Source of the DNA: Escherichia coli
GTDB lineage: Bacteria > Pseudomonadota > Gammaproteobacteria > Enterobacterales > Enterobacteriaceae
Strand: one strand, 5' to 3'
DNA length: 64,000 nucleotides
NCBI RefSeq assembly: GCF_003018255.1
Contig: NZ_CP027440.1
The stretch's first letter is position 1. Every line of letters begins with the position of its first letter. The notes under the pieces were generated by a model that was not told the DNA's origin, made no database searches, and saw only the letters and a program-made list of their open reading frames with translations. Positions 30,917-61,682 of this stretch are shown piece by piece. The translations under genes and the position numbers were made by a program.

Positions 30917-34241
<3,325 letters not shown>

Positions 34242-34242
<1 letters not shown>

Positions 34243-35615
34243 TGACCACGCGCCTGACTCGCTGGCTAACCACGCTGGATAACTTTGAAGCCAAAATGGC
34301 GCAGTTGCCTGCGGTACGTCGCTACGGGCGATTAACCCGCGCTACCGGGCTGGTGCTGGAAGCCACCGGATTACAATTGCCGCTCGGCGCAACCTGTGTC
34401 ATTGAGCGCCAGAACGGCAGCGAAACGCACGAAGTAGAAAGCGAAGTCGTTGGCTTTAACGGTCAACGGCTGTTTTTAATGCCGCTGGAGGAAGTCGAAG
34501 GTGTCCTGCCCGGCGCGCGTGTTTATGCCAAAAACATTTCGGCTGAAGGGCTGCAAAGCGGCAAGCAGTTGCCGCTCGGTTCGGCGTTATTAGGTCGCGT
34601 TCTGGACGGCAGCGGTAAACCGCTTGATGGCCTCCCCTCCCCCGATACGACGGAAACCGGTGCGCTGATTACCCCGCCATTTAACCCGTTGCAACGTACA
34701 CCGATTGAACATGTGCTGGACACCGGCGTGCGCCCAATCAATGCCCTGCTTACCGTCGGGCGCGGGCAGCGTATGGGGCTGTTTGCCGGGTCCGGCGTTG
34801 GTAAAAGTGTGCTGCTGGGGATGATGGCACGTTACACCCGCGCCGATGTCATTGTCGTGGGTTTGATTGGTGAACGAGGGCGCGAAGTAAAAGATTTTAT
34901 TGAGAATATCCTCGGTGCCGAAGGACGTGCACGCTCCGTGGTGATTGCCGCTCCGGCGGATGTTTCTCCGCTCCTGCGAATGCAGGGTGCCGCCTATGCC
35001 ACGCGCATTGCCGAAGATTTTCGCGATCGTGGTCAGCATGTGTTGCTGATTATGGACTCCCTCACCCGCTACGCGATGGCCCAGCGTGAAATTGCGCTGG
35101 CGATTGGCGAACCACCTGCCACTAAAGGTTATCCACCGTCGGTGTTTGCCAAATTACCGGCACTGGTCGAGCGTGCCGGAAATGGCATTAGCGGCGGCGG
35201 CTCGATTACCGCGTTTTATACCGTGCTCACCGAAGGCGATGACCAGCAGGACCCCATTGCCGACTCCGCGCGGGCAATCCTCGACGGTCACATTGTGCTG
35301 TCTCGCCGACTGGCGGAAGCCGGGCACTATCCGGCTATCGATATTGAAGCGTCGATCAGTCGCGCAATGACGGCGTTGATCAGTGAGCAACATTACGCGC
35401 GAGTGCGCACCTTCAAACAGCTGTTGTCGAGTTTTCAGCGTAACCGCGATCTGGTTAGCGTCGGCGCGTATGCCAAAGGCAGCGATCCGATGCTCGACAA
35501 AGCCATCGCCCTGTGGCCGCAGCTGGAGGGCTATTTGCAACAAGGCATTTTTGAACGCGCGGACTGGGAAGCGTCTCTCCAGGGGCTGGAGCGTATTTTC
35601 CCGACAGTATCATAA
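34242..35615 (+). CDS. fliI: flagellum-specific ATPase FliI
   Basis: 457-aa ORF with Walker A GSGVGKS; F1-ATPase-like. Confidence 0.95.
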
Positions 35616-35633
35616 CCCAGGAGATAACGGCAG

Positions 35634-36077
35634 ATGACAGAACATGGCGCGCTGGCGACCCTGAAAGATCTGGCAGAAAAAGAGGTAGAGGATGCCGCGC
35701 GCCTGCTGGGTGAAATGCGTCGGGGATGTCAGCAGGCGGAAGAACAGCTCAAAATGCTGATCGATTATCAGAATGAATATCGCAATAACCTCAATAGCGA
35801 TATGAGTGCCGGGATGACCAGCAACCGCTGGATCAACTATCAGCAGTTTATCCAGACGCTGGAAAAAGCCATTACTCAGCATCGCCAGCAACTTAATCAG
35901 TGGACGCAGAAAGTAGACATTGCCCTGAACAGCTGGCGAGAAAAGAAACAACGTTTGCAGGCTTGGCAGACACTGCAGGAACGGCAATCCACGGCGGCAC
36001 TGCTTGCAGAAAACCGCCTCGATCAGAAAAAGATGGATGAGTTCGCCCAGCGCGCCGCCATGAGGAAACCTGAATGA
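35634..36077 (+). CDS. fliJ: flagellar export protein FliJ
   Basis: 147-aa coiled-coil [34 protein letters not shown]. Confidence 0.92.
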
Positions 36078-37201
36078 TTCGCATAGCGCCCTTGATTACC
36101 GCTGACGTTGATAACGCCACATTGCCTGGCGGCAAAGCCAGCGATGCTGCACAAGATTTTCTCGCGTTGTTGAGCGAAGCATTAGCAGGCGAGACAACAA
36201 CCGACAAAGCGGCCCCCCAGTTGCTGGTGGCAACAGATAAGCCCACGACAAAAGGCGAGCCGCTGGTCAGCGATATTGTTTCCGATGCGCAACAAGCAGA
36301 TTTACTGATCCCTGTGGATGAAACACCGCCTGTCATCAACGACAAACAATCCACATCAACATCGTTAACCACCGCTCAGACGATAACGTTGGCTGCGGCG
36401 GCTGACAACAATACGGCAAAAGACGAAAAAGCGGATGATCTGAATGAAGACGTCACCGCAAGCCTGAGCGCCCTTTTTGCGATGTTGCCGGGTTTTGACA
36501 ATACGCCCAAAGTGACTGATGCACCGTCAACCGTGTTACCGACAGAGAAACCAACGCTTTTCACAAAACTGACTTCTGCGCAACTCACTACAGCACAGCC
36601 TGATGACGCCCCCGGCACACCAGCTCAGCCATTAACACCGCTGGTAGCAGAAGCCCAGAGTAAAGCGGAAGTCATCAGCACGCCTTCGTCGGTGACCGCT
36701 GCCGCCAGCCCGCTAATCACTCCACACCAGACACAGCCACTGCCCACCGTCGCCGCGCCTGTTTTGAGTGCACCGCTGGGTTCTCACGAATGGCAACAAT
36801 CATTAAGCCAGCATATTTCGCTGTTCACCCGCCAGGGGCAACAAAGTGCAGAGTTGCGTCTGCACCCACAGGATTTAGGTGAAGTGCAAATTTCCCTCAA
36901 AGTGGATGATAACCAGGCGCAAATCCAGATGGTTTCACCGCATCAGCACGTACGCGCCGCCCTGGAAGCAGCGCTGCCGGTACTGCGTACGCAGCTGGCC
37001 GAAAGTGGCATTCAGTTAGGGCAAAGCAACATCAGTGGCGAAAGCTTTAGTGGTCAGCAGCAGGCCGCTTCCCAACAACAGCAAAGCCAACGCACAGCAA
37101 ACCATGAACCTCTGGCGGGGGAAGACGACGATACGCTTCCGGTTCCCGTCTCTTTACAAGGGCGTGTAACAGGCAACAGCGGCGTTGATATTTTCGCCTA
37201 A
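36074..37201 (+). CDS. fliK: flagellar hook-length control protein FliK
   Basis: 375-aa Pro/Thr/Ala-rich [36 protein letters not shown]. Confidence 0.92.
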
Positions 37202-37305
37202 CGTCAGAGGTAGCACCGTAATCCGCGTCTTTTCCCCGCTTTGTTGCGCTCAAGACGCAGGATAATTAGCCGATAAGCAGTAGCGACACAGGAAGACCGC
37301 AACAC

Positions 37306-37770
37306 ATGACTGATTACGCGATAAGCAAGAAAAGCAAGCGATCGCTTTGGATCCCGATTCTGGTATTCATTACCCTCGCGGCCTGTGCCAGCGCAGGTTA
37401 CAGCTACTGGCATTCGCATCAGGTTGCCGCTGAAGACAAAGCGCAGCAACGCGTCGTGCCCTCCCCGGTCTTCTATGCGCTGGATACCTTTACGGTCAAT
37501 CTGGGCGATGCGGATCGCGTACTTTATATCGGCATAACCCTGCGACTCAAAGATGAAGCTACCCGCTCGCGGCTGAGTGAGTATTTGCCGGAAGTCCGTA
37601 GCCGTTTGCTGTTACTGTTTTCGCGTCAGGATGCTGCCGTACTGGCGACAGAAGAAGGTAAGAAAAACCTGATTGCCGAGATTAAAACCACACTTTCCAC
37701 CCCGCTTGTTGCCGGGCAACCGAAACAGGATGTCACCGACGTGCTGTATACCGCTTTTATTCTGCGATAA
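37306..37770 (+). CDS. fliL: flagellar basal body-associated protein FliL
   Basis: 154-aa [38 protein letters not shown]. Confidence 0.92.
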
Positions 37771-37774
37771 CGAC

Positions 37775-38779
37775 ATGGGCGATAGTATTCTTTCTCAAGC
37801 TGAAATTGATGCGCTGTTGAATGGTGACAGCGAAGTCAAAGACGAACCGACAGCCAGTGTTAGCGGCGAAAGTGACATTCGTCCGTACGATCCGAATACC
37901 CAACGACGGGTTGTGCGCGAACGTTTGCAGGCGCTGGAAATCATTAATGAGCGCTTTGCCCGCCATTTTCGTATGGGGCTGTTCAACCTGCTGCGCCGTA
38001 GCCCGGACATTACCGTCGGGGCCATCCGCATTCAGCCGTACCATGAATTTGCCCGCAACTTGCCGGTGCCGACCAACCTGAACCTTATCCACCTTAAACC
38101 GCTGCGCGGCACAGGGCTGGTGGTGTTCTCACCGAGTCTGGTGTTTATCGCCGTGGATAACCTGTTTGGCGGCGATGGACGCTTCCCGACCAAAGTGGAA
38201 GGTCGCGAGTTTACCCATACAGAACAGCGCGTCATCAACCGCATGTTAAAGCTGGCGCTTGAAGGCTATAGCGACGCCTGGAAGGCGATTAATCCGCTGG
38301 AAGTTGAGTACGTACGTTCGGAAATGCAGGTGAAATTTACCAATATCACCACCTCACCGAACGACATCGTGGTTAACACGCCGTTCCATGTGGAGATTGG
38401 CAACCTGACCGGCGAATTTAATATCTGTCTGCCATTCAGCATGATCGAGCCGCTACGGGAATTGTTGGTTAACCCGCCGCTGGAAAACTCGCGTAATGAA
38501 GATCAGAACTGGCGCGATAACCTGGTGCGCCAGGTGCAGCATTCACAGCTGGAGCTGGTCGCCAACTTTGCCGATATATCGCTACGCCTGTCGCAGATTT
38601 TAAAACTGAAACCCGGTGACGTCCTGCCGATAGAAAAACCCGACCGCATCATCGCCCATGTTGACGGTGTCCCGGTGCTGACCAGTCAGTACGGCACCCT
38701 CAACGGTCAGTATGCGTTACGGATAGAACATTTGATTAACCCGATTTTAAATTCTCTGAACGAGGAACAGCCCAAATGA
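37775..38779 (+). CDS. fliM: flagellar motor switch protein FliM
   Basis: ORF 37673..38779; start trimmed to MGDSILSQAEIDALLNGDSE (334 aa), immediately after the fliL stop. Confidence 0.93.
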   Translation: MGDSILSQAEIDALLNGDSEVKDEPTASVSGESDIRPYDPNTQRRVVRERLQALEIINERFARHFRMGLFNLLRRSPDITVGAIRIQPYHEFARNLPVPTNLNLIHLKPLRGTGLVVFSPSLVFIAVDNLFGGDGRFPTKVEGREFTHTEQRVINRMLKLALEGYSDAWKAINPLEVEYVRSEMQVKFTNITTSPNDIVVNTPFHVEIGNLTGEFNICLPFSMIEPLRELLVNPPLENSRNEDQNWRDNLVRQVQHSQLELVANFADISLRLSQILKLKPGDVLPIEKPDRIIAHVDGVPVLTSQYGTLNGQYALRIEHLINPILNSLNEEQPK

Positions 38780-39189
38780 GTGACATGAATAATCCGGCCG
38801 ATGACAACAACGGCGCAATGGACGATCTGTGGGCTGAAGCGTTGAGCGAACAAAAATCAACCAGCGGCAAAAGCGCTGCCGACGCGGTGTTCCAGCAATT
38901 TGGCGGTGGTGATGTCAGCGGAACGTTGCAGGATATCGACCTGATTATGGATATTCCGGTCAAGCTGACCGTCGAGCTGGGCCGCACACGAATGACCATC
39001 AAAGAGTTATTGCGTCTGACGCAAGGGTCCGTCGTGGCGCTGGACGGCCTGGCGGGCGAACCGCTGGATATTCTGATCAACGGTTATTTAATTGCTCAGG
39101 GCGAAGTTGTCGTAGTCGCTGATAAATATGGCGTGCGGATCACCGATATCATTACTCCGTCTGAGCGAATGCGTCGCCTGAGCCGTTAG
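38776..39189 (+). CDS. fliN: flagellar motor switch protein FliN
   Basis: 137-aa ORF MSDMNNPADDNNGAMDDLWAEALSEQK... with C-terminal SpoA domain. Confidence 0.93.
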   Translation: MSDMNNPADDNNGAMDDLWAEALSEQKSTSGKSAADAVFQQFGGGDVSGTLQDIDLIMDIPVKLTVELGRTRMTIKELLRLTQGSVVALDGLAGEPLDILINGYLIAQGEVVVVADKYGVRITDIITPSERMRRLSR

Positions 39190-39557
39190 TGATGAATAAC
39201 CATGCTACTGTGCAATCTTCCGCGCCGGTTTCTACTGCGCCACTGCTGCAGGTGAGCGGCGCACTCATCGCCATTATTGCCCTGATCCTCGCTGCTGCCT
39301 GGCTGGTAAAACGGCTGGGATTTGCCCCGAAACGCACTGGCGTTAACGGTCTGAAAATTAGCGCCAGTGCTTCGCTGGGCGCGCGTGAACGGGTCGTGGT
39401 GGTCGATGTGGAAGATGCACGGCTGGTGCTCGGCGTTACCGCAGGGCAAATCAATCTGCTGCATAAACTTCCCCCTTCAGCACCAACGGAAGAGATACCG
39501 CAGACCGATTTTCAGTCGGTCATGAAAAATTTGCTTAAGCGTAGCGGGAGATCCTGA
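39189..39557 (+). CDS. fliO: flagellar biosynthesis protein FliO
   Basis: 122-aa [47 protein letters not shown]. Confidence 0.9.
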
Positions 39558-39770
39558 TGCGTCGTTTGTTGTCTGTCGCACCTGTCCTTCTCTGGCTGGT
39601 TACGCCCCTCGCCTTCGCGCAACTGCCGGGTATCACCAGCCAGCCGCTGCCTGGCGGTGGACAAAGCTGGTCGCTCCCGGTGCAGACGCTGGTGTTCATT
39701 ACCTCGTTGACGTTTATCCCGGCAATTTTACTGATGATGACCAGTTTCACCCGCATCATCATTGTTTTTG

Positions 39771-40000
39771 GTTTATTGCGTAACGCACTGGGAACACCCT
39801 CCGCGCCACCTAACCAGGTATTGCTGGGGCTGGCACTGTTTTTGACCTTTTTTATTATGTCGCCGGTGATCGACAAAATTTATGTCGATGCGTACCAGCC
39901 ATTTAGCGAAGAGAAAATATCAATGCAGGAGGCGCTGGAAAAAGGGGCGCAGCCGCTGCGTGAGTTTATGCTGCGTCAGACCCGTGAGGCAGATTTAGGG
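39771..40000. repeat. direct repeat copy 1 (native fliP sequence)
   Basis: 230 bp, identical apart from a 1-bp G deletion to 40106..40334. Confidence 0.9.
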
Positions 40001-40069
40001 GTCCATGCGCTGTTGTCTTGACTGTTACGTCTTCGCGCAACTTTCAACCTGCTGCTGACGCTGTTTGCA

Positions 40070-40105
40070 TTTTTTTTTTTTTTTTTTTTTTTTTCATTTT
40101 TTTTT
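40070..40105. repeat. homopolymeric T tract (T25-CA-T9) at the duplication junction
   Basis: 25 consecutive T, then CA, then 9 T, read directly from the sequence. Confidence 0.95.
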
Positions 40106-40334
40106 GTTTATTGCGTAACGCACTGGAACACCCTCCGCGCCACCTAACCAGGTATTGCTGGGGCTGGCACTGTTTTTGACCTTTTTTATTATGTCGCCGG
40201 TGATCGACAAAATTTATGTCGATGCGTACCAGCCATTTAGCGAAGAGAAAATATCAATGCAGGAGGCGCTGGAAAAAGGGGCGCAGCCGCTGCGTGAGTT
40301 TATGCTGCGTCAGACCCGTGAGGCAGATTTAGGG
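40106..40334. repeat. direct repeat copy 2 (duplicated fliP sequence)
   Basis: Repeats 39771..40000 with a single G deletion (cactgggaac becomes cactggaac). Confidence 0.9.
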
Positions 40335-40637
40335 TTGTTTGCCAGACTGGCGAATACCGGCCCGTTGCAGGGACCTGAAGCCGTGCCGATGCGCATTTTG
40401 CTCCCGGCTTACGTGACCAGCGAGTTGAAAACCGCATTTCAGATAGGCTTCACGATTTTCATTCCTTTTTTGATTATCGACCTGGTGATTGCCAGCGTGT
40501 TGATGGCATTGGGGATGATGATGGTTCCCCCAGCCACCATTGCTCTGCCCTTTAAACTGATGCTGTTTGTACTGGTGGATGGCTGGCAATTGCTGGTCGG
40601 TTCGCTGGCGCAGAGCTTTTACAGCTAGAGAGGCAAA

Positions 40638-40907
40638 ATGACACCTGAATCGGTCATGATGATGGGGACTGAAGCGATGAAAGTCGCGCTGGCACTGGCT
40701 GCCCCACTGTTGCTGGTGGCGCTGGTCACGGGTCTTATCATCAGTATTTTGCAGGCCGCCACGCAGATCAACGAAATGACGCTGTCGTTTATTCCAAAAA
40801 TCATCGCCGTATTTATCGCCATTATTATTGCCGGACCGTGGATGCTCAATCTGTTGCTGGATTACGTCCGCACCTTGTTCACTAACCTGCCGTATATCAT
40901 CGGGTAG
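40638..40907 (+). CDS. fliQ: flagellar export apparatus protein FliQ
   Basis: 89-aa [57 protein letters not shown]. Confidence 0.93.
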
Positions 40908-40915
40908 GCCGTACA

Positions 40916-41701
40916 ATGATGCAGGTAACAAGCGATCAATGGCTTTCCTGGTTAAGCCTGTACTTCTGGCCGTTACTGCGCGTGCTGGCGCTCATTTCTA
41001 CCGCACCAATTCTGAGCGAACGCAGCGTGCCGAAACGGGTAAAACTGGGTCTGGCAATGATGATCACGTTCGCTATTGCCCCATCATTACCTGCCAACGA
41101 TGTTCCTGTTTTTTCGTTCTTTGCTCTGTGGCTGGCCGTGCAGCAGATCCTGATCGGCATTGCGCTTGGTTTTACCATGCAATTTGCCTTTGCCGCGGTG
41201 CGAACCGCTGGTGAAATTATCGGTCTGCAAATGGGGCTGTCATTTGCGACGTTTGTCGATCCGGCCAGCCATCTCAATATGCCCGTTCTAGCGCGTATCA
41301 TGGATATGCTGGCGTTATTGCTGTTCCTGACATTTAACGGTCATTTATGGTTGATTTCACTGCTAGTCGATACCTTTCACACCCTGCCAATTGGTGGCGA
41401 ACCGTTGAACAGCAATGCGTTTCTGGCACTCACCAAAGCAGGGAGTTTGATTTTCCTTAACGGGCTGATGCTGGCATTACCGCTCATTACTCTGCTGCTG
41501 ACCCTGAATCTGGCATTAGGTTTACTGAATCGTATGGCCCCGCAATTATCCATTTTTGTTATTGGATTTCCATTAACTCTGACTGTCGGTATCTCTTTAA
41601 TGGCGGCATTAATGCCGTTAATTGCGCCTTTTTGCGAACATTTATTCAGTGAGATGTTTAATTTGCTGGCTGATATTATTAGTGAATTGCCATTAATATA
41701 A
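40916..41701 (+). CDS. fliR: flagellar export apparatus protein FliR
   Basis: 261-aa multi-pass [59 protein letters not shown]. Confidence 0.93.
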
Positions 41702-41990
41702 TTCCGTAACGTTTATCATGTTATCCTAAGGATTATCCGAAAAATAATACCTACGAACATCTTCCAGGATACTCCTGCGGCGAAATATTTGTTTTAAGCT
41801 CACTCACATATCGCAACATTTACTTTACTTTAAGACAATTCCAGGCAAATTATACAACACTTTACGGGATAGTAAGTCCGCCTGAAAAATCGCGAGAGTG
41901 GCGCATTAGGTGACCCATGTTGTTCCGTTTAGTCATGATGAAATATTCAGGTAAGGGGAATTATCGTTACGCATTGAGTGAGGGTATGCC

Positions 41991-42614
41991 ATGTCAACGA
42001 TTATTATGGATTTATGTAGTTACACCCGACTAGGTTTAACCGGGTATCTGTTGAGTAGAGGGGTTAAAAAAAGAGAAATCAACGACATTGAAACCGTTGA
42101 TGACCTTGCCATAGCTTGTGATTCACAGCGCCCTTCAGTGGTGTTTATTAATGAGGACTGTTTCATCCACGATGCTTCTAACAGTCAGCGCATCAAGCAC
42201 ATCATTAATCAACATCCCAATACGTTATTTATCGTTTTTATGGCAATTGCCAATGTTCATTTTGATGAATATCTATTGGTCAGAAAAAATTTATTGATCA
42301 GTTCTAAATCGATTAAACCGGAATCTCTCGATGATATCCTTGGCGATATTCTGAAAAAAGAGACAACGATAACCTCGTTTTTAAATATGCCGACGTTATC
42401 ATTGAGCCGAACCGAATCGAGTATGTTGCGAATGTGGATGGCAGGTCAGGGAACCATTCAAATCTCCGACCAAATGAATATCAAAGCCAAGACCGTTTCA
42501 TCGCATAAAGGTAATATTAAACGTAAGATCAAAACGCATAATAAACAGGTTATCTACCATGTCGTCCGACTGACGGATAATGTGACTAATGGTATTTTTG
42601 TCAACATGCGCTAA
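41991..42614 (+). CDS. rcsA: colanic acid capsule regulator RcsA (LuxR-type HTH)
   Basis: 207-aa [61 protein letters not shown]. Confidence 0.93.
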
Positions 42615-42657
42615 CACATTCTGACTGGTGGTTTCCCACCAGTCAGGCTGAATTAGA

Positions 42658-42936
<279 letters not shown>

Positions 42937-43008
42937 CTATACTTAAGAGATGCCAGGCGGACTTAACGACTGGCGGCAACAACAGAGTAACGGTTGCGAG
43001 GAAAGATG

Positions 43009-43236
43009 ATGAAAACCGCAAAAGAGTACAGCGATACCGCAAAACGTGAGGTCAGCGTCGATGTCGATGCCCTGCTGGCGGCGATCAATGAAATTAGCGA
43101 AAGCGAAGTTCATCGCAGCCAGAACGATTCTGAACACGTTAGTGTCGATGGACGTGAATATCATACATGGCGTGAATTGGCGGATGCCTTCGAACTGGAT
43201 ATTCATGACTTCAGCGTCTCTGAAGTGAATCGTTGA
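43009..43236 (+). CDS. yodD: stress-induced protein YodD
   Basis: ORF 42994..43236; start trimmed to MKTAKEYSDTAKREVSVDVDALLAAINEISESEVHRS (75 aa). Confidence 0.85.
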   Translation: MKTAKEYSDTAKREVSVDVDALLAAINEISESEVHRSQNDSEHVSVDGREYHTWRELADAFELDIHDFSVSEVNR

Positions 43237-43250
43237 ATGCACAATAAAAA

Positions 43251-43337
43251 AAATCCCGACCCTGAGGGGGTCGGGATGAAACTTGCTTAAGCAAGAAGCA
43301 CTTAAAAAATTCGTTACACCAGGAAATCTGATGTGTT
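43251..43337 (-). ncRNA. dsrA: DsrA small regulatory RNA (Hfq-dependent; activates rpoS translation, represses hns)
   Basis: Minus strand reads AACACATCAGATTTCCTGGTGTAACGAATTTTTTAAGTGCTTCTTGCTTAAGCAAGTTTCATCCCGACCCCCTCAGGGTCGGGATTT; the 3' stem-loop CCCGACCCCCTCAGGGTCGGG plus U-run is its intrinsic terminator. Confidence 0.93.
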
Positions 43338-43516
43338 CATCACCTTATCCGCAATTTTTTTCGCTGACAAGAAAATATTCGTGATATGAATGATTAACGC
43401 TACTTATGAATAGAAATGTGACGCGCGTCACCCCTTGGTGGCTCTGGCGTCAACGGGATCGCTCCCAAAAAAATCATCTTTGATAATTTGTGCTGTTTTG
43501 AGAATCATCCTGGTAA

Positions 43517-46041
<2,525 letters not shown>

Positions 46042-46211
46042 CCTGACGACTCCCAACCTGCTTTTTTATGATTCTGGCATAACCCGGCGATAACGTACCG
46101 CAAAACAGCGATAATTTTATAATGGTGGCATGATAAGACGCGACTATCATTCATTGCAGGCATTGGCACACCAGGCCGGATGTGATCCGGCCTGGTGTTA
46201 ATGATACCCTT

Positions 46212-46394
46212 TCAAACTTCTTCCGCAGAACGACTCCCCTCCCCCGGAACAAGATCGGTTTCATGAAAAGCTTCCCGCTTGACCCCGTAACCGTCATACC
46301 AACGACACTCAACCATACCGCTGGAGTATCCAGTGACAATCATCCGCGGGCCGCCCTCTTTAACCGTAACTTCCTCACTAACCATAAAGCTCAT
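46212..46394 (-). CDS. yodC: uncharacterised protein YodC
   Basis: 60-aa ORF MSFMVSEEVTVKEGGPRMIVTGYSSGMVECRWYDGYGVKREAFHETDLVPGEGSRSAEEV. Confidence 0.85.
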   Translation of the reverse strand: MSFMVSEEVTVKEGGPRMIVTGYSSGMVECRWYDGYGVKREAFHETDLVPGEGSRSAEEV

Positions 46395-46472
46395 ACTCGC
46401 CTCCTTTTTTCGAGTGAAACTTGTTCACCTTAGTTGAAGATGGCGAATTTTGCATAATAGCCAGTGCGAGTA

Positions 46473-47390
46473 TTAATGTGCCTGACCGCGCATTTTCGCT
46501 ACTGCTTTCACTCCCAGCACCACGATGCCGCCGATGATAAAACCAAGAATCAGATTTAAAACAGTCGGTAATATCATCGCCACCACTGCACTTTGCTGCC
46601 CGGCGAAATGTTCAATGGCGTGATGCAGCGGCGCAATACCATGTACCACAATCCCGCCGCCGACGAGGAACATCGCCAGCGTGCCGACAATCGATAACGC
46701 CTTCATCAACCAGGGCGCAATGATCAATAACCCTTTACCTAATGCCTGCATCAGCGCGCTGGATTTTTCCGCCAACCAATACCCCAGGTCATCAATCTTA
46801 ACGATAACCCCTACCAGACCGTAGACGCCCACGGTCACTACCAGCGCGATGCCTGAAAGCACCAGCACCTGATTAAGCAACGGCGCTTCTGCCACAATCC
46901 CCAGCGTGATGGCGACGATTTCCGCAGACAAAATAAAATCGGTACGAATCGCCCCTTTAATTTTGTCCTTTTCAAACTTCAGCGGATCCTGCGCCGCCAG
47001 CTTCTCCAGACGCTGCTGGCTCTGCGCTGGATCTTCTTTATGTTTACGCGCCTCCAGCATATGCAGCACTTTCTCTACCCCTTCAAAGCAGAGAAACGCG
47101 CCACCAATCATCAACAGTGGCGTAATCGCCCACGGGATAAACGCACTGATGATCAGCGCCAGCGGCACCAGAATCACTTTATTGATCAGCGATCCTTTCG
47201 CCACGCCCCAGACCACGGGAAGTTCCCGGTTGGCCCGCACGCCCGAAACTTGTTGCGCATTGAGCGATAAATCATCCCCTAATACACCGGCGGTTTTCTT
47301 CGCCGCCAGTTTGCCCATCACGGAGATATCGTCCAGCAGTGTGGCGATATCATCGAGCAACGTCAGTAAACTACTCCCGGCCAAAAGCAT
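46473..47390 (-). CDS. yedI: DUF808 family inner membrane protein YedI
   Basis: 305-aa [54 protein letters not shown]. Confidence 0.9.
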
Positions 47391-47562
47391 TCCCTCTCAT
47401 TTTTATTGTTGAAGGGTGTAAGTATGAAGCAAAAACGGCAGCTCTGATACTTGCTTCACAGGTCAACATTTATTTAACAATCAAGTGCAATTATATCTCT
47501 CGCCAGCAGAATGATTTTCACGTTTACTATGAACCACCTTTTTATTTCCGCCGTGAGGGATT

Positions 47563-48483
47563 ATGCGTTTCCGCCAGTTGTTACCGCTTTTTGGCGCGCT
47601 GTTTGCGTTGTATATCATTTGGGGCTCAACCTATTTTGTCATTCGGATTGGCGTGGAAAGCTGGCCTCCGTTAATGATGGCGGGCGTTCGATTCCTGGCA
47701 GCCGGTATTTTATTGCTGGCATTTTTGCTACTGCGCGGACACAAACTTCCCCCGCTACGTCCGCTGCTCAATGCCGCGCTGATTGGCCTGTTATTGCTGG
47801 CTGTCGGTAATGGCATGGTGACGGTTGCCGAACATCAAAATGTTCCTTCCGGCATCGCCGCCGTAGTGGTTGCAACCGTGCCCCTCTTTACCCTGTGCTT
47901 CAGCCGCCTGTTTGGCATTAAAACGCGCAAACTGGAATGGGTGGGTATCGCCATTGGGCTTGCCGGAATCATCATGCTCAATAGCGGTGGAAATTTAAGC
48001 GGCAATCCGTGGGGCGCGATTCTGATTTTAATCGGCTCGATTAGCTGGGCGTTTGGCTCGGTTTATGGCTCGCGCATTACCTTACCTGTAGGGATGATGG
48101 CGGGTGCGATTGAGATGCTGGCGGCAGGCGTGGTGTTAATGATTGCGTCGATGATTGCGGGTGAAAAACTGACGGCGCTCCCTTCCCTTTCAGGCTTCCT
48201 TGCGGTCGGCTATCTGGCGCTGTTTGGTTCGATTATCGCCATTAACGCTTATATGTATTTAATCCGCAACGTCAGTCCGGCTCTCGCCACCAGCTACGCC
48301 TACGTTAACCCGGTGGTCGCGGTCTTACTGGGTACGGGACTGGGTGGCGAAACGCTGTCGAAGATTGAATGGCTGGCGCTCGGCGTGATTGTCTTCGCGG
48401 TGGTACTGGTCACGTTGGGAAAATATCTCTTCCCGGCAAAACCCGTAGTTGCGCCAGTTATTCAGGACGCATCAAGCGAGTAA
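47563..48483 (+). CDS. yedA: EamA/DMT-family transporter YedA
   Basis: 306-aa ORF with 10 predicted TM segments, MRFRQLLPLFGALFALYIIWGSTYFVIRIG. Confidence 0.9.
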   Translation: MRFRQLLPLFGALFALYIIWGSTYFVIRIGVESWPPLMMAGVRFLAAGILLLAFLLLRGHKLPPLRPLLNAALIGLLLLAVGNGMVTVAEHQNVPSGIAAVVVATVPLFTLCFSRLFGIKTRKLEWVGIAIGLAGIIMLNSGGNLSGNPWGAILILIGSISWAFGSVYGSRITLPVGMMAGAIEMLAAGVVLMIASMIAGEKLTALPSLSGFLAVGYLALFGSIIAINAYMYLIRNVSPALATSYAYVNPVVAVLLGTGLGGETLSKIEWLALGVIVFAVVLVTLGKYLFPAKPVVAPVIQDASSE

Positions 48484-48942
48484 ATGAATCCCCTGCGTGT
48501 CGATCTGCGCGCTGGCACCTTCGCCGCAGATCCACTCTTCCAGACGCTCGGTAAGCGCCGCATCCGTAAGCTTCTCGCGCCCACGTAACGCACACTCCCA
48601 GACAATCAGTACGCGCCAGCCGAGTTCCTGCAAGCGACTGATATCGCGGCGATCGCGTTCAACATTTTTACCTATCTTCTCCAGCCAGAACTCGGTTCGA
48701 GTCGCAGGCACTTTAAACAGATAGCAGTGATGATGATGCCAGAAGCAGCCGTGGGTAAATATCACGCAGCGATATTCATCAACGACAAAATCCGGGCGTC
48801 CGGGCAGACTGGCGTCCTGAACGCGAAACGCCAGGCCCTGCCCGGTTAACAAACTGGCGAGGCGCTTCTCAATCGCCGTATTACGCGTGGCAATTGCGCG
48901 CATATTTTTGCTGCGGGTGGCCTTATCGTGAACGTCGACCAT
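48472..48942 (-). CDS. vsr: very-short-patch-repair endonuclease Vsr
   Basis: ORF 48472..49104; start trimmed to [32 protein letters not shown] (156 aa); overlaps the dcm 3' end in a different frame. Confidence 0.9.
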
Positions 48943-50341
48943 GTTGTGCCTCTTGCTGACGCAACGCCACCGCCTGTTTGATTTTTGGCTCAAGCAGTTT
49001 TGCCACCGCGGCAAAGACCGGCACGACCACCGAGTTACCGAACTGGCGATAGGCCTGAGTGTCCGAAACCGGAATGCGGAATTTCGCTTCTCCCGGCGCT
49101 TCAAAACCCATTAAGCGCGCGCATTCCCGAGGCGTTAACCGACGTGGACGATGTTGCTGATTCAGCGGATCGTCAAAGTCTTTCTCACCCGTGGCCATAT
49201 CCCAGCCGCGATCGATTAGAATTTCCGCGCCATCTTTGTAATAACGCGCAGACAGCGTACGCGTGACGCTTTGCGGATTGTTCGGATAAACCATTCCATA
49301 ACCGAAGCCGTTACCGCGCGCCTGATGTTTTTTCGCATAACGATAGAGGTACTTCCACAGCACCGACGTCAGGATATATTTCGCCTCGACCATCGGGTCC
49401 AGCAGCTGCGCCAGCGTCACTCGCTGTGCAGGGAAACATTTGCTGATATCACGCAGAGTAAAATCGGCTTTCAGATTCAGATCGCGACGAAAACCCACCA
49501 GCACGATGCGTTCACGGTGCTGCGGCAGAAAATGTTTGCCGTCGATGATTTTCGGATCGTCTGGCCCGTTATCTTCTGCATCAGCCACGTCATAGCCCAG
49601 TTCGTCCAGCGTCTGCATGATGATGCGGAACGTTTTACCCTGGTCGTGACTTTTCAGGTTTTTGACGTTTTCGAGCACAAACATCGCCGGACGACGCGCG
49701 TCGATAATGCGCACCACATCAAAGAACAGCGTGCCCTGGGTATCGCAGGCAAAACCGTGCGCCCGCCCGAGCGAGTTCTTTTTCGATACGCCAGCCAGCG
49801 AAAATGGCTGACAAGGAAAACCCGCCAGTAATACATCGTGTTCAGGAATGTGTTGACGAATATGTTCCGCCGCCGCCTCATCACTCACGCCTTCTTTATG
49901 GCTGAGGGTGATGTCGCGGATATCTTCATTAAAATGATGCGTCGCCGGGTCGCAATAATGATTGGCTTTATAAGTGCGTACCGCATGTTTGTTCCATTCG
50001 CTGGTAAAGACGCACTGTCCGCCAATCGATTCAAAACCGCGACGGATGCCGCCAATTCCGGCAAATAGATCGATAAAGCGAAACGCATAATGCGGATGAT
50101 GTGCCGGTGGTTTGGGTAACAACGTTTGCAGATGGGCGAACTCTTTCTCACTTAAACGGTGCCATGCCGAGTCATTCGCCAGCGCACGTTTTAAAATTGC
50201 CGCGCTCCAGTGATTCTCACCCACACCATTAAGCTGCGCCACCAGCGTTTTAACATCATAAATTTGCAGCAGTTTCTCCAGCATTGCCTGAACGACATTC
50301 CCGGTGCTGTATGAATCGGTTACTGATATATTTTCCTGCAT
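48923..50341 (-). CDS. dcm: DNA-cytosine C5 methyltransferase Dcm (CCWGG)
   Basis: 472-aa [40 protein letters not shown]... with C5-MTase motifs FAGIGG, PCQPFS, ENV. Confidence 0.93.
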
Positions 50342-50407
50342 AGATTTAACCGGCCATCTGAGATGGCCGACAGGTTAACATAATTACTGCCGTTTAGGGC
50401 CACGCGC

Positions 50408-51103
50408 TCAGCCCGCGGGTGAAAACGCATCTATCACCTTGTGATCGACACCTTCATTCTCCCCCGCCAGTTCGGCACTGAGCTTCGCCATAAACTCGAC
50501 TAAAAATTGCGCGTTGTGCTGCGCCAGCTGCTTGCCTCTTGCGGTTTGCATGGTTTGCGGTAGCTTCAGCAACTTAGTCTGGAAATGATCCAGCGCGTAG
50601 CGTTTATCATCAAGCGGGCGATGCTGTGCGAACGGATCTTCGCCATCAAACAGCGCCACGCCCAATGCCCCTGAAACAGCAAACACGCGCGCCAGGCCAA
50701 TCGCCCCCAGGGCTTCCAGCCGATCCGCATCCTGGACGATTTTAGCTTCCGTTGTTAAGGGGGCGATTTGCGCGCTGAAACTGTGCGCGGCAATGGCATG
50801 ACAAACGGCCTCGATTTTCTCCGCCGGAAATTGCACGAACTCTTCACGGAGCAGGCGACGCGTCTCTTCTGCCGCCAGGATTGAAGAATGCTGCCGTTGC
50901 GGATGATCTTTCGCCAGGCTCACAATATCGTGAAAATAACAGGCGGATAAAATCACCAGCATATCGACATCGTCATCTGCCGCCAGCTTCTGTGCCGTAG
51001 CCCAGACGCGGCGAAAATGACACACGTCATGGGCCGCGTCCTGGTGCTGATGATGGTTTTTCAACCAGTTTTCGAACTGTGCCTGCCAGTGTTGTAAGTC
51101 CAT
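50408..51103 (-). CDS. yedJ: HD-domain phosphohydrolase YedJ
   Basis: ORF 50408..51130; start trimmed to [34 protein letters not shown] (231 aa; HD motif ...HD...D). Confidence 0.88.
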
Positions 51104-51142
51104 ACGCGCTCCGTTGCCAAAGAGTCGCAACCTTAGCAGTTT

Positions 51143-51526
51143 TTATTCATAGCGTCTGCTACGTGCGGGACGAGGTCGGGTGTACCAGGCAATGCTGCCT
51201 AACAATGCCCCGACCAGAGCCATAAATAAAAATCCGACCAGTGCCCCTAACCACTTTCCCGCGGTAGAGCCTAAATCGCTTTCAAATCCCGACACCGGGG
51301 CATCAGGGATCCGGCTCATCACCCAGATGTAACGCGCCATTGCCCAGACGAAATAGCCACACCATGTATAGAAAGCCCACAAAGCCAATTTGCCGCCAGG
51401 GCTGCGAGAGAGTCTCTCTTCCATCTTTGTCGAACCGTATTCCATTTTGAGATAACCCGGAAAATTCAGACTTAGTACTATTATGTGATAAAAGTCACAT
51501 TTTTCCACATTGGATGAGCCAGTCAA
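51143..51526 (-). CDS. yedR: inner membrane protein YedR (start codon uncertain)
   Basis: ORF with two TM helices (...LALWAFYTWCGYFVWAMARYIWV... and ...WLGALVGFLFMALVGALLGSIAWY...); the true start may be an internal Met (MEYGSTK or MEERL). Confidence 0.65.
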   Translation of the reverse strand: MTGSSNVEKCDFYHIIVLSLNFPGYLKMEYGSTKMEERLSRSPGGKLALWAFYTWCGYFVWAMARYIWVMSRIPDAPVSGFESDLGSTAGKWLGALVGFLFMALVGALLGSIAWYTRPRPARSRRYE

Positions 51527-52070
51527 GACTCAATCATTTTTTGAACAAATAGATAAATTTTGCGCAACGGCGGTGAATACAGGAAAATTCGATTTGAACG
51601 ATGTTATTTATCTTTGATTTCGGCTTTATTAATTCACTCAATCAATATATTGGCACTGATTACAATTATACCTTTTTATTTTTCTGTGTCATCATGCCTC
51701 CGTTATTAGCCTTTTATCGTCTTGTTTATATTTTTTTGGCCGGCATGATGCCGGCTTTTTTTATGCCTTCATTAATGTGCGCGAGATCACACCAGCCGTT
51801 TAGCACACAATCATTGATACTCCCTATCTTTTCGATCAACTCATAACATATTGATATACATCCATAATGTTCGTGAATATTTATATTCAGAATTCATAGC
51901 CACGAATTATATTAAATAGATTAGAAACATTTTGAAATCTTTTAAATACATTTGTTACATGTAATCTTTAAAATAAAATGAACTTCATAGAATAGTATCC
52001 AAATGTGCTTTTTTTGGATAACAGCACTTATTGATATATTCATGAAGATTATAATCACAAGGGAATACAT

Positions 52071-52553: not shown

Positions 52554-53654
52554 TCATTCCATTTCGAAATCATCAATCTTCACTTCAAGCTCCAGACTGG
52601 TCGTAAAACCGTTATCCGGGCTGACAGTATGCGTCAGGGTGGTAATAGTCCATTCCGCATCATCTATCGGCTGTTTAAAGCCACTGACTTTCACTGGCAT
52701 TTCCGTGTAGAGATCTGCCCGCCCTTCCGCCAGTTGTAGCGAGAATGACGCAACGCCGCGTTGCAGGCGTTCCCACTGCATTTTCGCCGCTCGTTCGGCG
52801 TTGCTCCGGTTGGCATAAGTGCGATTAAGTACCAGCACGTTTTCATCCGTACCCACCAGGTAATCGCCCTGCTTCGCTTCCGGCTCTTTCTTCTGCTTCT
52901 TAGTTCTGCGCTTACGCTTCACCGTGGTGCTTTCTTTCTTCGCGGGTTCGCGGGTATGCAACCAGCTGGCAATTACGCCCGTGTAAGCTCCGCGATCTGC
53001 CAGGGTAAAGCGGTGACTGTCGCCGTCCTTACGTGTGATAGTGATAACCGGTAGTGGTTTACCACTGGCGCTTTTACCCTGCCCCTGCCTGATGAATAAC
53101 AGATTGCCATTTTTCACCGACGCAATAGCACCGTACTGGCGCGCCAGCCGCATCAGAAAACTGCCGTCACTCTCATTGGTCTGGTCTATATGTTCCACGG
53201 GTTTATCTGACAGGTCTTTACCCAATGCCATCTTCAGTTTGTGCCGCGCAGCTATTTCCTTCACCACTTCCCCAACGGTGGTCTTGTGCCACGACTTTTC
53301 ACGGCGGGTATTCAGTGTTTCACGAAAATCAGCACTTCGCGCCCGGATAGTCAGGCGGTCCGGTGCGCCAGTGTGTTCAATCTCGTCCACTGTGAATGCC
53401 CCTTTCGGGAAAAGCGGCTGCCCCTTCCAGCCTAGCGCCAGCGTAATGACCGCACCACGGCGCGGCAGCGCTATTTTTCCATCGGCGTCATCCAGGTCCA
53501 GATCAAGCTGGTCCGCTTCAAAGCCCCGGTTATCCGTCAGCGTCAGACTCATCAGGCGGTTATCCAGCACAGTGGTGATATCCCTGCCCTCAATACTGAT
53601 ACTGAATGCCGGAGTTTTGTTGCCTTTGTTAAGCAGTTCAGAGCTGAAATTCAC
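52554..53654 (-). CDS. P2 gpD-like tail protein (late control gene D)
   Basis: 366-aa ORF MNFSSELLNKGNKTPAFSISIEGRDITTVLDNRLMSLTLTDNRGFEADQLDLDLDDADG..., gpD family; position between ogr and U. Confidence 0.85.
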   Translation of the reverse strand: MNFSSELLNKGNKTPAFSISIEGRDITTVLDNRLMSLTLTDNRGFEADQLDLDLDDADGKIALPRRGAVITLALGWKGQPLFPKGAFTVDEIEHTGAPDRLTIRARSADFRETLNTRREKSWHKTTVGEVVKEIAARHKLKMALGKDLSDKPVEHIDQTNESDGSFLMRLARQYGAIASVKNGNLLFIRQGQGKSASGKPLPVITITRKDGDSHRFTLADRGAYTGVIASWLHTREPAKKESTTVKRKRRTKKQKKEPEAKQGDYLVGTDENVLVLNRTYANRSNAERAAKMQWERLQRGVASFSLQLAEGRADLYTEMPVKVSGFKQPIDDAEWTITTLTHTVSPDNGFTTSLELEVKIDDFEME

Positions 53655-54136
53655 GACAGAAGCCCTCCCACCGTTTTACTGATATCGCTTAAGGCAGATG
53701 TTGCCGTTCCCTGCAGATTATTCAGCTGCGCACTGAGATCACCGAACATATCGGACAGGGATTCATCCACCCGTTTGAGCGACAGGGTGAACTCAATCCG
53801 GCGCGGCATACCGTTGCGGAAAAACTCCGTTTTAGTCTGATTCAGTCCCTCAATCACATACATGCCGTAAATCGTGCCGCTGCCTTCAATCAGAGGCCAT
53901 GCTTTCCCCTGTTCTGCCATCTGCTCAAGTGCCAGCAACGACAGCCTGCCGCCTGTTATCTCCGGCATAAGAACACCGGAAAGCGTCAGCATGTCGTTGT
54001 CTGGTCCCAGAAACTGCGTGGACGGACGACGATTTACCCGGCTGTTAACCGCATGTCGCCAGCTGCGTTGATACTGCAGTTCCTGATACGGCACGGTGCG
54101 CAGCATAAACACGTACAATCCCAGCACCATCATCAT
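53651..54136 (-). CDS. P2 gpU-like tail protein
   Basis: 161-aa ORF; position between D and the tape-measure gene; 4-bp overlaps on both sides. Confidence 0.8.
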   Translation of the reverse strand: MMMVLGLYVFMLRTVPYQELQYQRSWRHAVNSRVNRRPSTQFLGPDNDMLTLSGVLMPEITGGRLSLLALEQMAEQGKAWPLIEGSGTIYGMYVIEGLNQTKTEFFRNGMPRRIEFTLSLKRVDESLSDMFGDLSAQLNNLQGTATSALSDISKTVGGLLS

Positions 54137-57100
54137 GCGTCGTATCCCCCCTGATCGCTGTAGTTACTCCTGGCTTTTGCCTTCAGCCTGCGTTCACGTT
54201 CATCAAGCTGGCGTGCCACCTCCCGCGCAATATCCTGCGCACTTTGTCCTGGCTGCGTCTGAATGATGATCTGCGTCGGTGCCTCAATCCGTTGAACGAG
54301 CGGCACAGTGGCTGCGCGACTCACAATTGCTTCTCCACCTTTCGCGGGAAGTGCCAAAGGGTGCAACGGTGGAAGCTCTGCTGGCGCGGCAGCAACGCCC
54401 ATCATTCCGGCAACAACGGCAGCCAGTGCAGCTGTATTTCTCCGGCTGGTCACATTTGCCGGGCCGTTAACAATTTCCGGCCCGTTTTCACCGACGATGC
54501 CAAACTGCCCGCGCGGGATATACCCGCCGCTGTCATACATCCCCGCAAAGCCATATCCCCATGATGGAAAACCACCCGATGGCATCATCACTTTACCGTC
54601 TGCATTCACCGTCGCAGGTTGCTGACGCGTCACGCTTTCCGGCAGTTTTGCCTTTGCGGCCTCTTTACTGACAATGCCGAGCTTCTCCAGCAACCAGGAA
54701 ACGCCGGATTTCAGGGAGTCCAGCGGATGCATGACCATATTCAGCCCTTCCACCAGTGCCTCCCCGAATCGCCGCCCCATTGCCGCTGCGCTCTGCAGTT
54801 CGGCAGAGGTCGACTTAACGGGCGTCAGCAGATCAGTAAACCAGCCCCACAGCGCCTGCACTTTGTCGCCAATCCACTGGAACACGGGCTTAAGCGGTTC
54901 GAACGCTGCACTGATGGGACCTGCCGCCGCTTTGAATCCTTCCACCACGCCACCGAGAAATGCGGTGATGGGTTGCCAGTATTTCCAGACAACCAGCGCC
55001 ACGCCCGCCAGTGCAGTAACCACAAGACCTATCGGACTGAGCAGAGCACCTAACAGACCAGATATGGCATACAGGGCAACGCGCAGCATCGCCAGTGGAC
55101 CAGATGCCAGTACTCGCAGCACCGTGCCTGCGGCGGCCAGTCCACCGCGCAGTACCGACAGAGGATTCATAAACATCACAGCAACAGCACGTAAACCGGA
55201 TAATCCAGACCGCAAAAGTGCAACCGGCGCACCTGCTACAGTTTTCAGGACATTTCCCGTCAGTGATGCCGTGCGGCGCAAAGACGACAACGGCGCAGTA
55301 AGTAAACCTGCGGCGTTGCCCGATGAAGCAAGCCCGCGTCGCAGCAGTGCCAGTGGTGCGCCAGCCAGCCAGGACAACGCGCTGCTGGTTCGAGTTACTG
55401 CTGCCGTAACGAAAGATAACGTTTTGATACCCAGCACAGAGAATCCCAGACGGATCACTGCCAGCGGCCCCAGCACTGCAGCCAGCGCCACCGCTAAGGT
55501 GCCGAGGCCGACGGTAACCGCAGCCACAACAGCCGATGCTTTCATCAGTGTGCCTGTCAGTTCCGGGTTAGCTTCCACCCAGCGACGCAACGCCCCCGTG
55601 ACGCTTTTCACCGTGTACAGAATATCCATCAGCGGCTGGCGCAGCGTTTCGCCCAGGCTGCTGAAGGTGTTCTGCGCTCCGGTTTTGACCAGCAACCACT
55701 GCGCAGAAAGTGAATCCTTGTTAATGTCGGATTCTTTCTGCATGGAGCCGAGCGCATCATTGCCCGCTGTCAGTTTTAACTGACGCTGCAGTTCCGGCAG
55801 GTTGTTTGCCAGTTTCGCCGCGTCATCGCCAAACTCTTTACCAAACAACATAGTCATGGCAGACAGGCGCTTGTCCTGCGGCAGCGCGTTTACCTTCTCC
55901 AGCACGCGCTGGATGGTTCCCATCGCATCCTTCGTCATCTGCTTTTCAATCACTTCAGGATTGAGTTTCAGCAAATTCATCCCTTCAAAGAAACTTTTGC
56001 TTTGCATGGTGGCAATGGACAATTCACGCACCATCGCGTTTGCTGCACTGGCTGCAACCTCTGGCGCAGCGCCCAGTGTCAGGAAGGTGGAACCCAGCGC
56101 CGCCGCTTTACGATAATCCAGACGGTCAGCCACACCGCCCAGACGTTGCATCACATCAATGATGTCTGCCCCTTTCGACATGGCGTTATCATCCAGATAG
56201 TTCAGCGCATCACCGAGCTGTTCAATATTGCGGGTGGGGATTTTGTAGAGCTGGGCGATTTTCCCCAGACTTTCTGACAGTTCATCCGCTGGCAGCTCAA
56301 AGGCTGTTGCCGCCTTTGCTGCCGTACTGGCGAAGGCCAGCAGGTCACGTTTCTGATCTTCCCAACTGTCGTCAGGGTTTGCGACGTTCATGCGCGCACC
56401 ACCTTCAACCAGTGCAGCGAAATCCACCGCACCGTTTTCCATCGGCAACTGTTCGCTGGCAGCCTTGATGGCATCCTGCATTTCATAAAAACGTGCAGTG
56501 CGGTTGCCATTATCGTCACGCAGACCATTGACCTGCTTTGCCACACCTTTCATGGCATCTTCCATGCTGGTATAGCTTTTTACTGCCGCCATCACTGGTG
56601 CGCCCATTGCCAGCCCTGCAGCCGTGGTGGTGGCTCCGGCACCTGCAATACGATCACGCACCTCCAGCGAACGGGCATAACTGGCACGCGCTGCATTCAT
56701 CCTGCGCTGAGCTTCCCCCAGTCGCTTCAGCCGCGCCTCCTGTTTCGAAAGTTCCTGGTTATAACGTGATGTTTCACGGGCTAAACGGGCAGTTGCTCCC
56801 GCATCGTCTTTCGCAGAAATTCCCGCCCGGTACAGTTCAGCACGCACAAGCGCCGTCTGCTGCTGCAGCTTTTTCTGGCGTTCTTCCAGGCGCTGAACAG
56901 CCAGCCGTTGACGGCCCAGAGCAACAACCTGACGTTGCGAAGGCGGCCCCATCGCTCCCAGTTCCTGACTGAGCAAATTTGCACGCTGGCGGGCATAGTT
57001 CAGCCTGTCGCCTAATTTCTGATTTTCTGCCTGCAGCTTTCGGAAGCTGTCCAGACTGCTCCCGGCCTGATCAAGCTGCTTTATTGCATCGCGGGATTTT

Positions 57101-57210
57101 TTGACAGCAGCAGCCAGTTCTCTTGAACTGGCCTGCGCAGATCGAAATGGGCGGGTGAGCTTGTCAACCGCATTAAGAATGACCTGCAGACGCAGGTTGT
57201 TATCACTCAT
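54133..57210 (-). CDS. tail tape-measure protein (P2 gpT-like)
   Basis: 1025-aa ORF with Ala/Leu-rich coiled-coil N-terminal half and Gly/Ala-rich segments, typical of tape-measure proteins. Confidence 0.88.
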   Translation of the reverse strand: MSDNNLRLQVILNAVDKLTRPFRSAQASSRELAAAVKKSRDAIKQLDQAGSSLDSFRKLQAENQKLGDRLNYARQRANLLSQELGAMGPPSQRQVVALGRQRLAVQRLEERQKKLQQQTALVRAELYRAGISAKDDAGATARLARETSRYNQELSKQEARLKRLGEAQRRMNAARASYARSLEVRDRIAGAGATTTAAGLAMGAPVMAAVKSYTSMEDAMKGVAKQVNGLRDDNGNRTARFYEMQDAIKAASEQLPMENGAVDFAALVEGGARMNVANPDDSWEDQKRDLLAFASTAAKAATAFELPADELSESLGKIAQLYKIPTRNIEQLGDALNYLDDNAMSKGADIIDVMQRLGGVADRLDYRKAAALGSTFLTLGAAPEVAASAANAMVRELSIATMQSKSFFEGMNLLKLNPEVIEKQMTKDAMGTIQRVLEKVNALPQDKRLSAMTMLFGKEFGDDAAKLANNLPELQRQLKLTAGNDALGSMQKESDINKDSLSAQWLLVKTGAQNTFSSLGETLRQPLMDILYTVKSVTGALRRWVEANPELTGTLMKASAVVAAVTVGLGTLAVALAAVLGPLAVIRLGFSVLGIKTLSFVTAAVTRTSSALSWLAGAPLALLRRGLASSGNAAGLLTAPLSSLRRTASLTGNVLKTVAGAPVALLRSGLSGLRAVAVMFMNPLSVLRGGLAAAGTVLRVLASGPLAMLRVALYAISGLLGALLSPIGLVVTALAGVALVVWKYWQPITAFLGGVVEGFKAAAGPISAAFEPLKPVFQWIGDKVQALWGWFTDLLTPVKSTSAELQSAAAMGRRFGEALVEGLNMVMHPLDSLKSGVSWLLEKLGIVSKEAAKAKLPESVTRQQPATVNADGKVMMPSGGFPSWGYGFAGMYDSGGYIPRGQFGIVGENGPEIVNGPANVTSRRNTAALAAVVAGMMGVAAAPAELPPLHPLALPAKGGEAIVSRAATVPLVQRIEAPTQIIIQTQPGQSAQDIAREVARQLDERERRLKAKARSNYSDQGGYDA

Positions 57211-57336
57211 CGTTGGCCCCGCTTCTCTGAATCGCTTTATACCGCCATTCCAGCACTTCGGTCAGCGGCATAACGTCAGTAACGGATGGCGGCCAGTGAA
57301 AAATGGTGGCGATATCTGCCACCAGATCGTCAACCG

Positions 57337-57639
57337 TCAGGCTGTCGGTAAACCGGCAAGCACCGACTTCTTCAACAAAAAAGTGACAACCTCAACCGAC
57401 ATGGCAGTGAGATCTGCCGGGTCCATCTCTGCAATTTCCTGTGCAGTCAGTGCCGGACTGGAGATGCGGGGGATCACGATCATCATCGCGTTTACATCCA
57501 TATCCATAATGGCCTGCAGGCGTGTACCGCGCAGCGCACCGGACTGCGGTTTACGCAGCACAATTTCGGTGATTTCTGTTTTACCGCGCTTGATGGGGGT
57601 ATCCAGTTGAATGGTCTTTTCAGTCTGCTTATCGCTCAT
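57337..57639 (-). CDS. P2 gpE-like tail assembly chaperone (0-frame product; E+E' made by -1 frameshift extends to about 57203)
   Basis: 100-aa ORF MSDKQTEKTIQLDTPIKRGKTEITEIVLRKPQSGALRGTRLQAIMDMD...; a slippery site lies near its 3' end. Confidence 0.8.
   Translation of the reverse strand: MSDKQTEKTIQLDTPIKRGKTEITEIVLRKPQSGALRGTRLQAIMDMDVNAMMIVIPRISSPALTAQEIAEMDPADLTAMSVEVVTFLLKKSVLAGLPTA
57376..57382 (-). promoter_or_regulatory. programmed -1 ribosomal frameshift slippery heptamer T-TTT-TTG (E to E+E')
   Basis: Minus strand reads ACT TTT TTG in the E frame. The -1 frame stays open for about 59 further codons, stopping at TGA overlapping the first codons of the tape-measure gene. Confidence 0.7.
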
Positions 57640-57693
57640 TTTGCTGTCCTGTCAATTGGGTTCTGGCGCGGTATCCCGCGCCGTTCAGATATA

Positions 57694-58209: not shown

Positions 58210-58218
58210 GTTGTCCCC

Positions 58219-59391: not shown

Positions 59392-59533
59392 AGTGGCGAA
59401 CCTCCTGATTGGATTAGGCTTCGCCCTATGTTGAAGTGATTGTGCCTGACAAACAGCTAAGCGCAGTTGTGTCGTTATTCACACAAAATAACGGTATTTG
59501 TCTGCTTGCAGGGATAATCAACATAATGCTGAT

Positions 59534-61680: not shown

Positions 61681-61682
61681 TC

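Follow-up and report, generated by a model that had tools for sequence, protein, structure and literature searches.

An interrupted fliP gene in an Escherichia coli chromosome very probably reflects an unrecognised overlap at an assembly or finishing join

We analyzed a 64,000-nt stretch (hereafter, the window) of an Escherichia coli chromosome (NCBI RefSeq assembly GCF_003018255.1, contig NZ_CP027440.1, one strand) in which the flagellar gene fliP is split in two, and we conclude that the split is very probably an artefact of assembly or finishing, produced at a contig-end or finishing join where a 321-bp overlap went unrecognised. The true genome most likely carries a normal 738-bp fliP and a normal flagellar export gate. 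A preliminary description of this locus implied a real duplication that had later degenerated and left the strain non-motile, and named an assembly or consensus artefact as the outcome that would overturn this reading; the evidence points to the artefact, through an error gradient in the second copy, the identity of the surrounding sequence to that of clone-mates, and the exact restoration of fliP when the second copy is removed.

The window covers E. coli flagellar region III and its surroundings, including araFGH, ftnB, ftnA, tyrP, uvrC, fliA–fliR, rcsA, dsrB, dcm, vsr, and, last, a prophage. Within it, fliP spans 39557–40628, with 334 extra nucleotides at 40001–40334 that follow codon 148 and give way to a normal continuation to 40628; the flanking parts, 39557–40000 and 40335–40628, together make exactly 738 nt (Table 1). 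Candidate products were scored with TIGR01103, the profile of FliP (family PF00813), a component of the flagellar type III export gate; its curated equivalog cut-off is 217.45 bits. The sequence as deposited holds no single uninterrupted fliP ORF: against TIGR01103, a 154-aa ORF scored 152.1 bits over profile positions 1–103 and a 157-aa ORF scored 247.7 bits over positions 43–197. The 245-aa protein rebuilt by removing 40001–40334 scored 314.4 bits, covered profile positions 1–197, and equaled the FliP of a clone-mate, L013, that is introduced below. The two incomplete ORFs of the preliminary description, FliP 1-148 plus six junk residues and a 157-aa C-terminal product, are thus present, except that the second starts at a TTG codon and not at an internal ATG. 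Both ORFs (39557–40021 and 40155–40628) are spurious. All flagellar genes adjoining fliP are intact, so the neighborhood is without any sign of regulon decay.

Table 1 Coordinates of fliP segments, spurious reading frames, and other features of the window.
Feature	Position	Strand	Evidence or remark
fliP 5′ part, genuine (codons 1–148)	39557..40000	+	0/3,800 differences from clone-mate L013 over 36201–40000; TIGR01103 profile 1–103 matched
Twice-represented 321-nt segment	39680..40000	+	Collinear end to end with 40001–40334 (global alignment)
69-mer, read as a badly base-called copy of fliP 39680–39755	40001..40069	+	Gapped alignment against 1000 shuffles
T25-CA-T9, read as ~21 surplus T's inside the collinear copy plus G>T at 40099 and 40105	40070..40105	+	Alignment
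Well-called part of redundant copy of fliP 39771–40000	40106..40334	+	One G missing from a GGG run, at 40125–40126
fliP 3′ part, genuine (codons 149–245 and stop)	40335..40628	+	Joined to 39557–40000 gives 738 nt
ORF, 154 aa, FliP 1–148 with junk tail VHALLS	39557..40021	+	Open reading frame in the deposited sequence
ORF, 157 aa, TTG start, FliP residues 89–245	40155..40628	+	Open reading frame in the deposited sequence
Three tRNAs	10482–10781	-	Correspond to Leu, Cys, and Gly tRNAs annotated in the nearest complete genome (L001)
DsrA small RNA	43251–43337	-	102.5 bits
RseX small RNA	51673–51762	+	92.5 bits
Tape-measure protein, prophage	54133–57210		TIGR01760, 310 bits
Serine invertase, Pin/Gin type, prophage	59534–60106		
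Tail-fibre gene, 500 aa, prophage	61683–63185		Exact protein on only 4 draft contigs

The extra nucleotides are made of fliP itself. The block at 39771–40000 comes again at 40106–40334 with the loss of one G (GGG at 39790–39792, GG at 40125–40126), as had been described, and self-BLAST showed that the repeat reaches 12 nt further left, to 39759, pairing 39759–40000 with 40094–40334 over 242 nt at 98.8% identity as the sole repeat within the 64-kb window. Between the two blocks lie the 69-mer (40001–40069) and the tract T25-CA-T9 (40070–40105), also as described. It had been suspected that the 69-mer is a mutated copy of upstream fliP and the whole event a ~320-bp duplication in which the 5′ third is degenerate, and alignment bore this out: with gaps allowed, the 69-mer was collinear with fliP 39680–39747 at a score of 19, compared to 8.6 ± 1.6 for shuffled sequences, none of which (0/1000) equaled the observed value, and a test on the whole of fliP and both strands gave P ~0.002. 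Without gaps, at an offset of 335, 19 of 69 positions matched, which is chance level; the 69-mer has no BLAST match to fliP because the likeness vanishes when gaps are disallowed. Global alignment placed 40001–40334 in collinearity with 39680–40000 over the full length of both, including the T run, with the second copy beginning right after the first. Since the collinearity continues across the T run, the T's belong inside the copy and are not foreign DNA. The whole insert, 40001–40334, is a second copy of fliP 39680–40000 (hereafter, copy 2).

Other origins for the filler between the blocks were considered and rejected. The search for another source of the 69-mer, suggested in the preliminary description, returned only chance-level matches of 22–37 nt among 20,395 E. 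coli records, 72,556 plasmids, and 50,697 phage records (BLAST, word size 11, E ≤ 10), which argues against a foreign origin. None of 21 adapter or primer sequences of the ONT, PacBio, Illumina, 454, and Ion platforms aligned to it above the shuffled null (lowest shuffle fraction 0.06), and an adapter or primer origin was rejected on that basis for the set compared, which leaves room for an oligonucleotide outside it. The filler and T run folded no better than shuffled sequences (z = 0.14) and had no Rfam match, speaking against a structured RNA or terminator, and poly(A)-retroposition was rejected on the grounds that the A/T run is internal to the collinear copy rather than at the end of an element.

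The differences between copy 2 and its template are distributed as a gradient. The first 35 nt (40001–40035) align with 27 matches, 8 substitutions, and 5 deletions, and the next 34 (40036–40069) with 26 matches, 4 substitutions, 6 deletions, and 4 insertions, giving for the 69-mer as a whole about 70% identity (53 matches, 12 substitutions, and ~15 indel columns, of which 11 are deleted and 4 inserted). These are followed by ~21 surplus T's at 40070–40093, and then, at 40094–40127, by two G>T changes (40099 and 40105) and the G lost from the GGG run; from 40128 rightward there are zero differences, and the next 11,223 nt are identical to the clone-mate L013. All differences in copy 2 thus fall within its first 127 nt and worsen toward its first base, one-sidedly and monotonically. 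Changes to T account for 7 of the 16 substitutions. Apart from T25 and T9, both in the junk sequence, no homopolymer of the window exceeds 8 nt; runs in 306 kb of other E. coli loci likewise reach 8 at most, which makes T25 alien to the composition of this species. This pattern is a quality gradient and not evolutionary divergence. Mutations accumulating after a duplication would fall evenly along the copy, whereas copy 2 is uneven, and the reading as a degenerated duplication in a non-motile strain is therefore unsupported. Copy 2 shows neither the clean junction nor the even divergence of a genuine tandem duplication; its error density rises toward the inferred end of a piece, and the sequence elsewhere is accurate, as expected of a join artefact.

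Comparison with two near-clonal relatives of the strain, both of them independent draft assemblies, provided a measure of that accuracy. L013 (GCA_051323065.1) was found through the window's exact YedP protein and L018 (GCA_012175695.1) through its exact FliD protein; these proteins occur on 657 and 730 contigs, respectively, the longest in each case being the window's own contig (4,892,666 bp). L013 had no differences from the window over the 3,800 nt of 36201–40000, and over 40094–51350 it differed only at 40099, at 40105, and in the missing G, while L018 was identical to the window over 21,407 nt (12776–34182). Pooled, the clone-mates gave 0 differences in 36,430 nt, compared to ~33 differing columns, and 21 surplus T's besides, within 127 nt of copy 2 (Poisson, ~1e-102). 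We also rejected the possibility that the assembly is a generally noisy long-read product, given that its alignment to the nearest complete genome is gap-free over 18,020 bp and that it is identical to the clone-mates.

When 40001–40334 is deleted, the resulting fliP has 0/738 differences from that of L013; removal of one copy thus restores the sequence of a close relative at 738/738 bases. An intact 245-aa FliP is encoded by L013 and by nine other related contigs, and the duplication is absent from all ten, near-clonal L013 included. More widely, fliP spans 738 bp and lacks the insert in each of the 5,185 complete E. coli genomes that matched it, and a literature search found no fliP tandem duplication described in E. 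coli among the ten best-ranked papers. The exact 154-aa product with the VHALLS tail was found on a single contig among ~15 billion proteins. The 157-aa ORF is present on other contigs, yet behind unrelated junctions, and we rejected it as independent confirmation of the split because the junctions differ, being next to an AraC-family neighbor in contigs L002–L004 and at an apparent small inversion in L005.

We propose that two pieces truly overlapping by 321 bp, corresponding to fliP 39680–40000, were put end to end. Piece A would be clean and stop at 40000. Piece B would start at 40001 with the poor-quality end of a read or contig that had escaped trimming, only about 70% correct and with many bases dropped over the initial ~69 nt; a base-calling failure would then have emitted the ~21 surplus T's, to be followed by a few residual errors and by perfect sequence from 40128 onward. 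The overlap was probably left undetected or untrimmed, which we attribute to the start of piece B being too noisy, and subsequent polishing would have failed there, since accurate reads do not map to such sequence. By this reasoning the step between 40000 and 40001 would correspond to a contig or read boundary. The join could have been a long-read bridge, a gap-closing read pasted in, or the remaining start–end overlap of a long-read contig that had been circularised and then rotated; the deletion-rich noise with its homopolymer burst suggests a raw long read.

The closest known system is the duplication left by start–end overlaps and contig joins in long-read or hybrid bacterial assemblies (Wick & Holt 2019/2021, PMC6966772; Hunt et al. 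2015, Circlator, PMC4699355). The fliP repeat resembles contig-join duplications in being direct, adjacent, and single-copy in relatives, in having one low-quality side with the rest accurate, and in yielding the expected sequence once removed. Unlike start–end overlaps, it lies inside the record and not at its ends, so that a later rotation or a join of two contigs would be needed, and at only 321 bp it is short for a typical assembler, the start–end overlaps of long-read contigs being typically kilobases. An untrimmed read start pasted during manual finishing or gap closure would share the steep gain in quality over the first ~100–130 bases, the early burst of T's, and the clean sequence afterwards. 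The ~21 surplus bases exceed the usual addition in a dye artefact of a finishing read, but such a read is indistinguishable here from the raw end of a long read.

Intact fliP genes in clone-mates alone leave room for a mutation private to this isolate, and the most serious alternative is of that kind: a true, clean, recent 321-bp tandem duplication of fliP 39680–40000 that abolished motility and of which only the first ~127 nt of copy 2 were badly called. Spontaneous short tandem duplications are common, and motility loss is often selected in culture. Genuine duplications of this type, made by slipped-strand events or unequal recombination, would share with the window a head-to-tail repeat of a few hundred base pairs that breaks the frame, and the well-called parts of the two copies are indeed identical but for one homopolymer G; short reads might also have favored the clean first copy, so that the noisy start of copy 2 stayed unpolished. 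Set against this, genuine duplications have a clean junction and evenly diverging copies, whereas the fliP case has an error gradient from ~30% to 0% together with T25. About 30% error with ~21 extra T's is the quality of a raw single read, unlike the consensus of a normally covered internal region, and the remainder of the assembly compared is base-perfect against the clone-mates (0/36,430). The noise sets in exactly at the first base of copy 2, as expected of a piece boundary but not of a real internal repeat, and the duplication is seen in no other assembly of the lineage. We therefore consider a private duplication improbable.

Still less probable, in our judgment, is an event in vivo, a template switch or repair synthesis in which fliP was copied anew from 39680 by a polymerase or reverse transcriptase of very low fidelity, so that early errors and slippage in a T-rich stretch generated the filler and the T25 tract. 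The filler is templated by adjacent sequence, as this would require, and the T run falls where the native sequence is itself rich in T (TCATTGTTTTTGGTTTATT) and a polymerase could conceivably slip. We know of no bacterial polymerase or reverse transcriptase, however, that makes ~30% errors with ~15 indel columns in 69 nt and is error-free thereafter. The substitutions are mixed and T-biased and carry no enzyme signature such as adenine-specific change, a T25 tract would be unstable in a species whose sampled loci have no run above 8, and the event is confined to one assembly. Were it true, the flagellar export gate would have been inactivated in a lineage whose other members are intact. Least credible, to the point of being negligible, is the insertion of a small foreign or mobile element (the 69-mer and T tract) flanked by a ~230-bp target-site duplication, which is superficially suggested by the repeat–insert–repeat layout: the "insert" is itself a noisy copy of adjoining fliP, searches of E. 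coli genomes, plasmids, and phages found no homologue of it, it lacks inverted repeats, coding capacity, an Rfam match, and a fold (z = 0.14), and the target duplication would be 230–320 bp, compared to the few to ~14 bp of known bacterial elements.

As biology, the fliP split is unimportant; its value lies in quality control of assemblies. The deposited chromosome was the sole chromosome-scale assembly that we found for a lineage otherwise represented by hundreds of draft contigs, and it carries the 334-nt insertion that we regard as spurious. The insertion breaks an essential flagellar gene in two, so that annotation would give a pseudogene or a pair of partial proteins and non-motility could be wrongly predicted; the junk-tailed 154-aa protein is already in protein collections. 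The join artefact that we favor leaves a signature that can easily be screened for, namely a tandem repeat whose second copy opens with errors that die away along its length and with a homopolymer atypical of the genome, and further joins of the same kind may lie elsewhere in this genome.

Several other E. coli assemblies carry fliP variants of other kinds. A 157-aa fliP 3′ fragment abuts unrelated DNA beside an AraC-family regulator gene in L002 (3001–3474), L003 (1141–1614), and L004 (129–602), and this arrangement, found on 8 contigs, is a genuine recurrent lesion. These lesions leave the same TTG-started C-terminal ORF as the window; their junction recurs in independent assemblies, whereas that of the window occurs in one. 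L002 has IS605-family genes upstream and yedK directly after, and the interval from fliE to the 5′ part of fliP appears to be deleted. The 736-bp contig L005 (GCA_030237635.1) has at positions 1–99 the reverse complement of fliP 39693–39767 (73/75 identical) immediately 5′ of a fliP 3′ fragment, which is either a small inversion within fliP or a misassembly in a short contig. L008 (GCA_033688435.1) is a mosaic relative to window positions 31074–42536, with 10 mismatches in the 8,926 bp upstream of the junction and 40 in the 2,443 bp downstream, a pattern suggesting that natural recombination in that relative had a breakpoint within or close to fliP; since L013 equals the window on both sides, this mosaic has nothing to do with the artefact.

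Relative to JNE120442, the nearest complete genome, the window (43247–43256) lacks an IS200C insertion that separates yodD from yedP there (L001 33923–34624). The dgcQ of JNE120442 has an internal stop and is listed as a pseudogene, whereas a long ORF is open in the window at 44347–46056. The window's fliC (20771–22510, minus strand) encodes a 579-aa flagellin found as an exact protein on 775 contigs, and its center is the sole stretch of the flagellar locus that did not align to JNE120442 (gap at 21027–21981), as expected for H-antigen variation. The end of the window (52554–64000) is a prophage tail module that includes a VgrG-related or baseplate protein besides the genes in Table 1. In locus L022, the tail-fibre-assembly genes on the two flanks point in opposite directions, suggesting that the tail-fibre segment is invertible.
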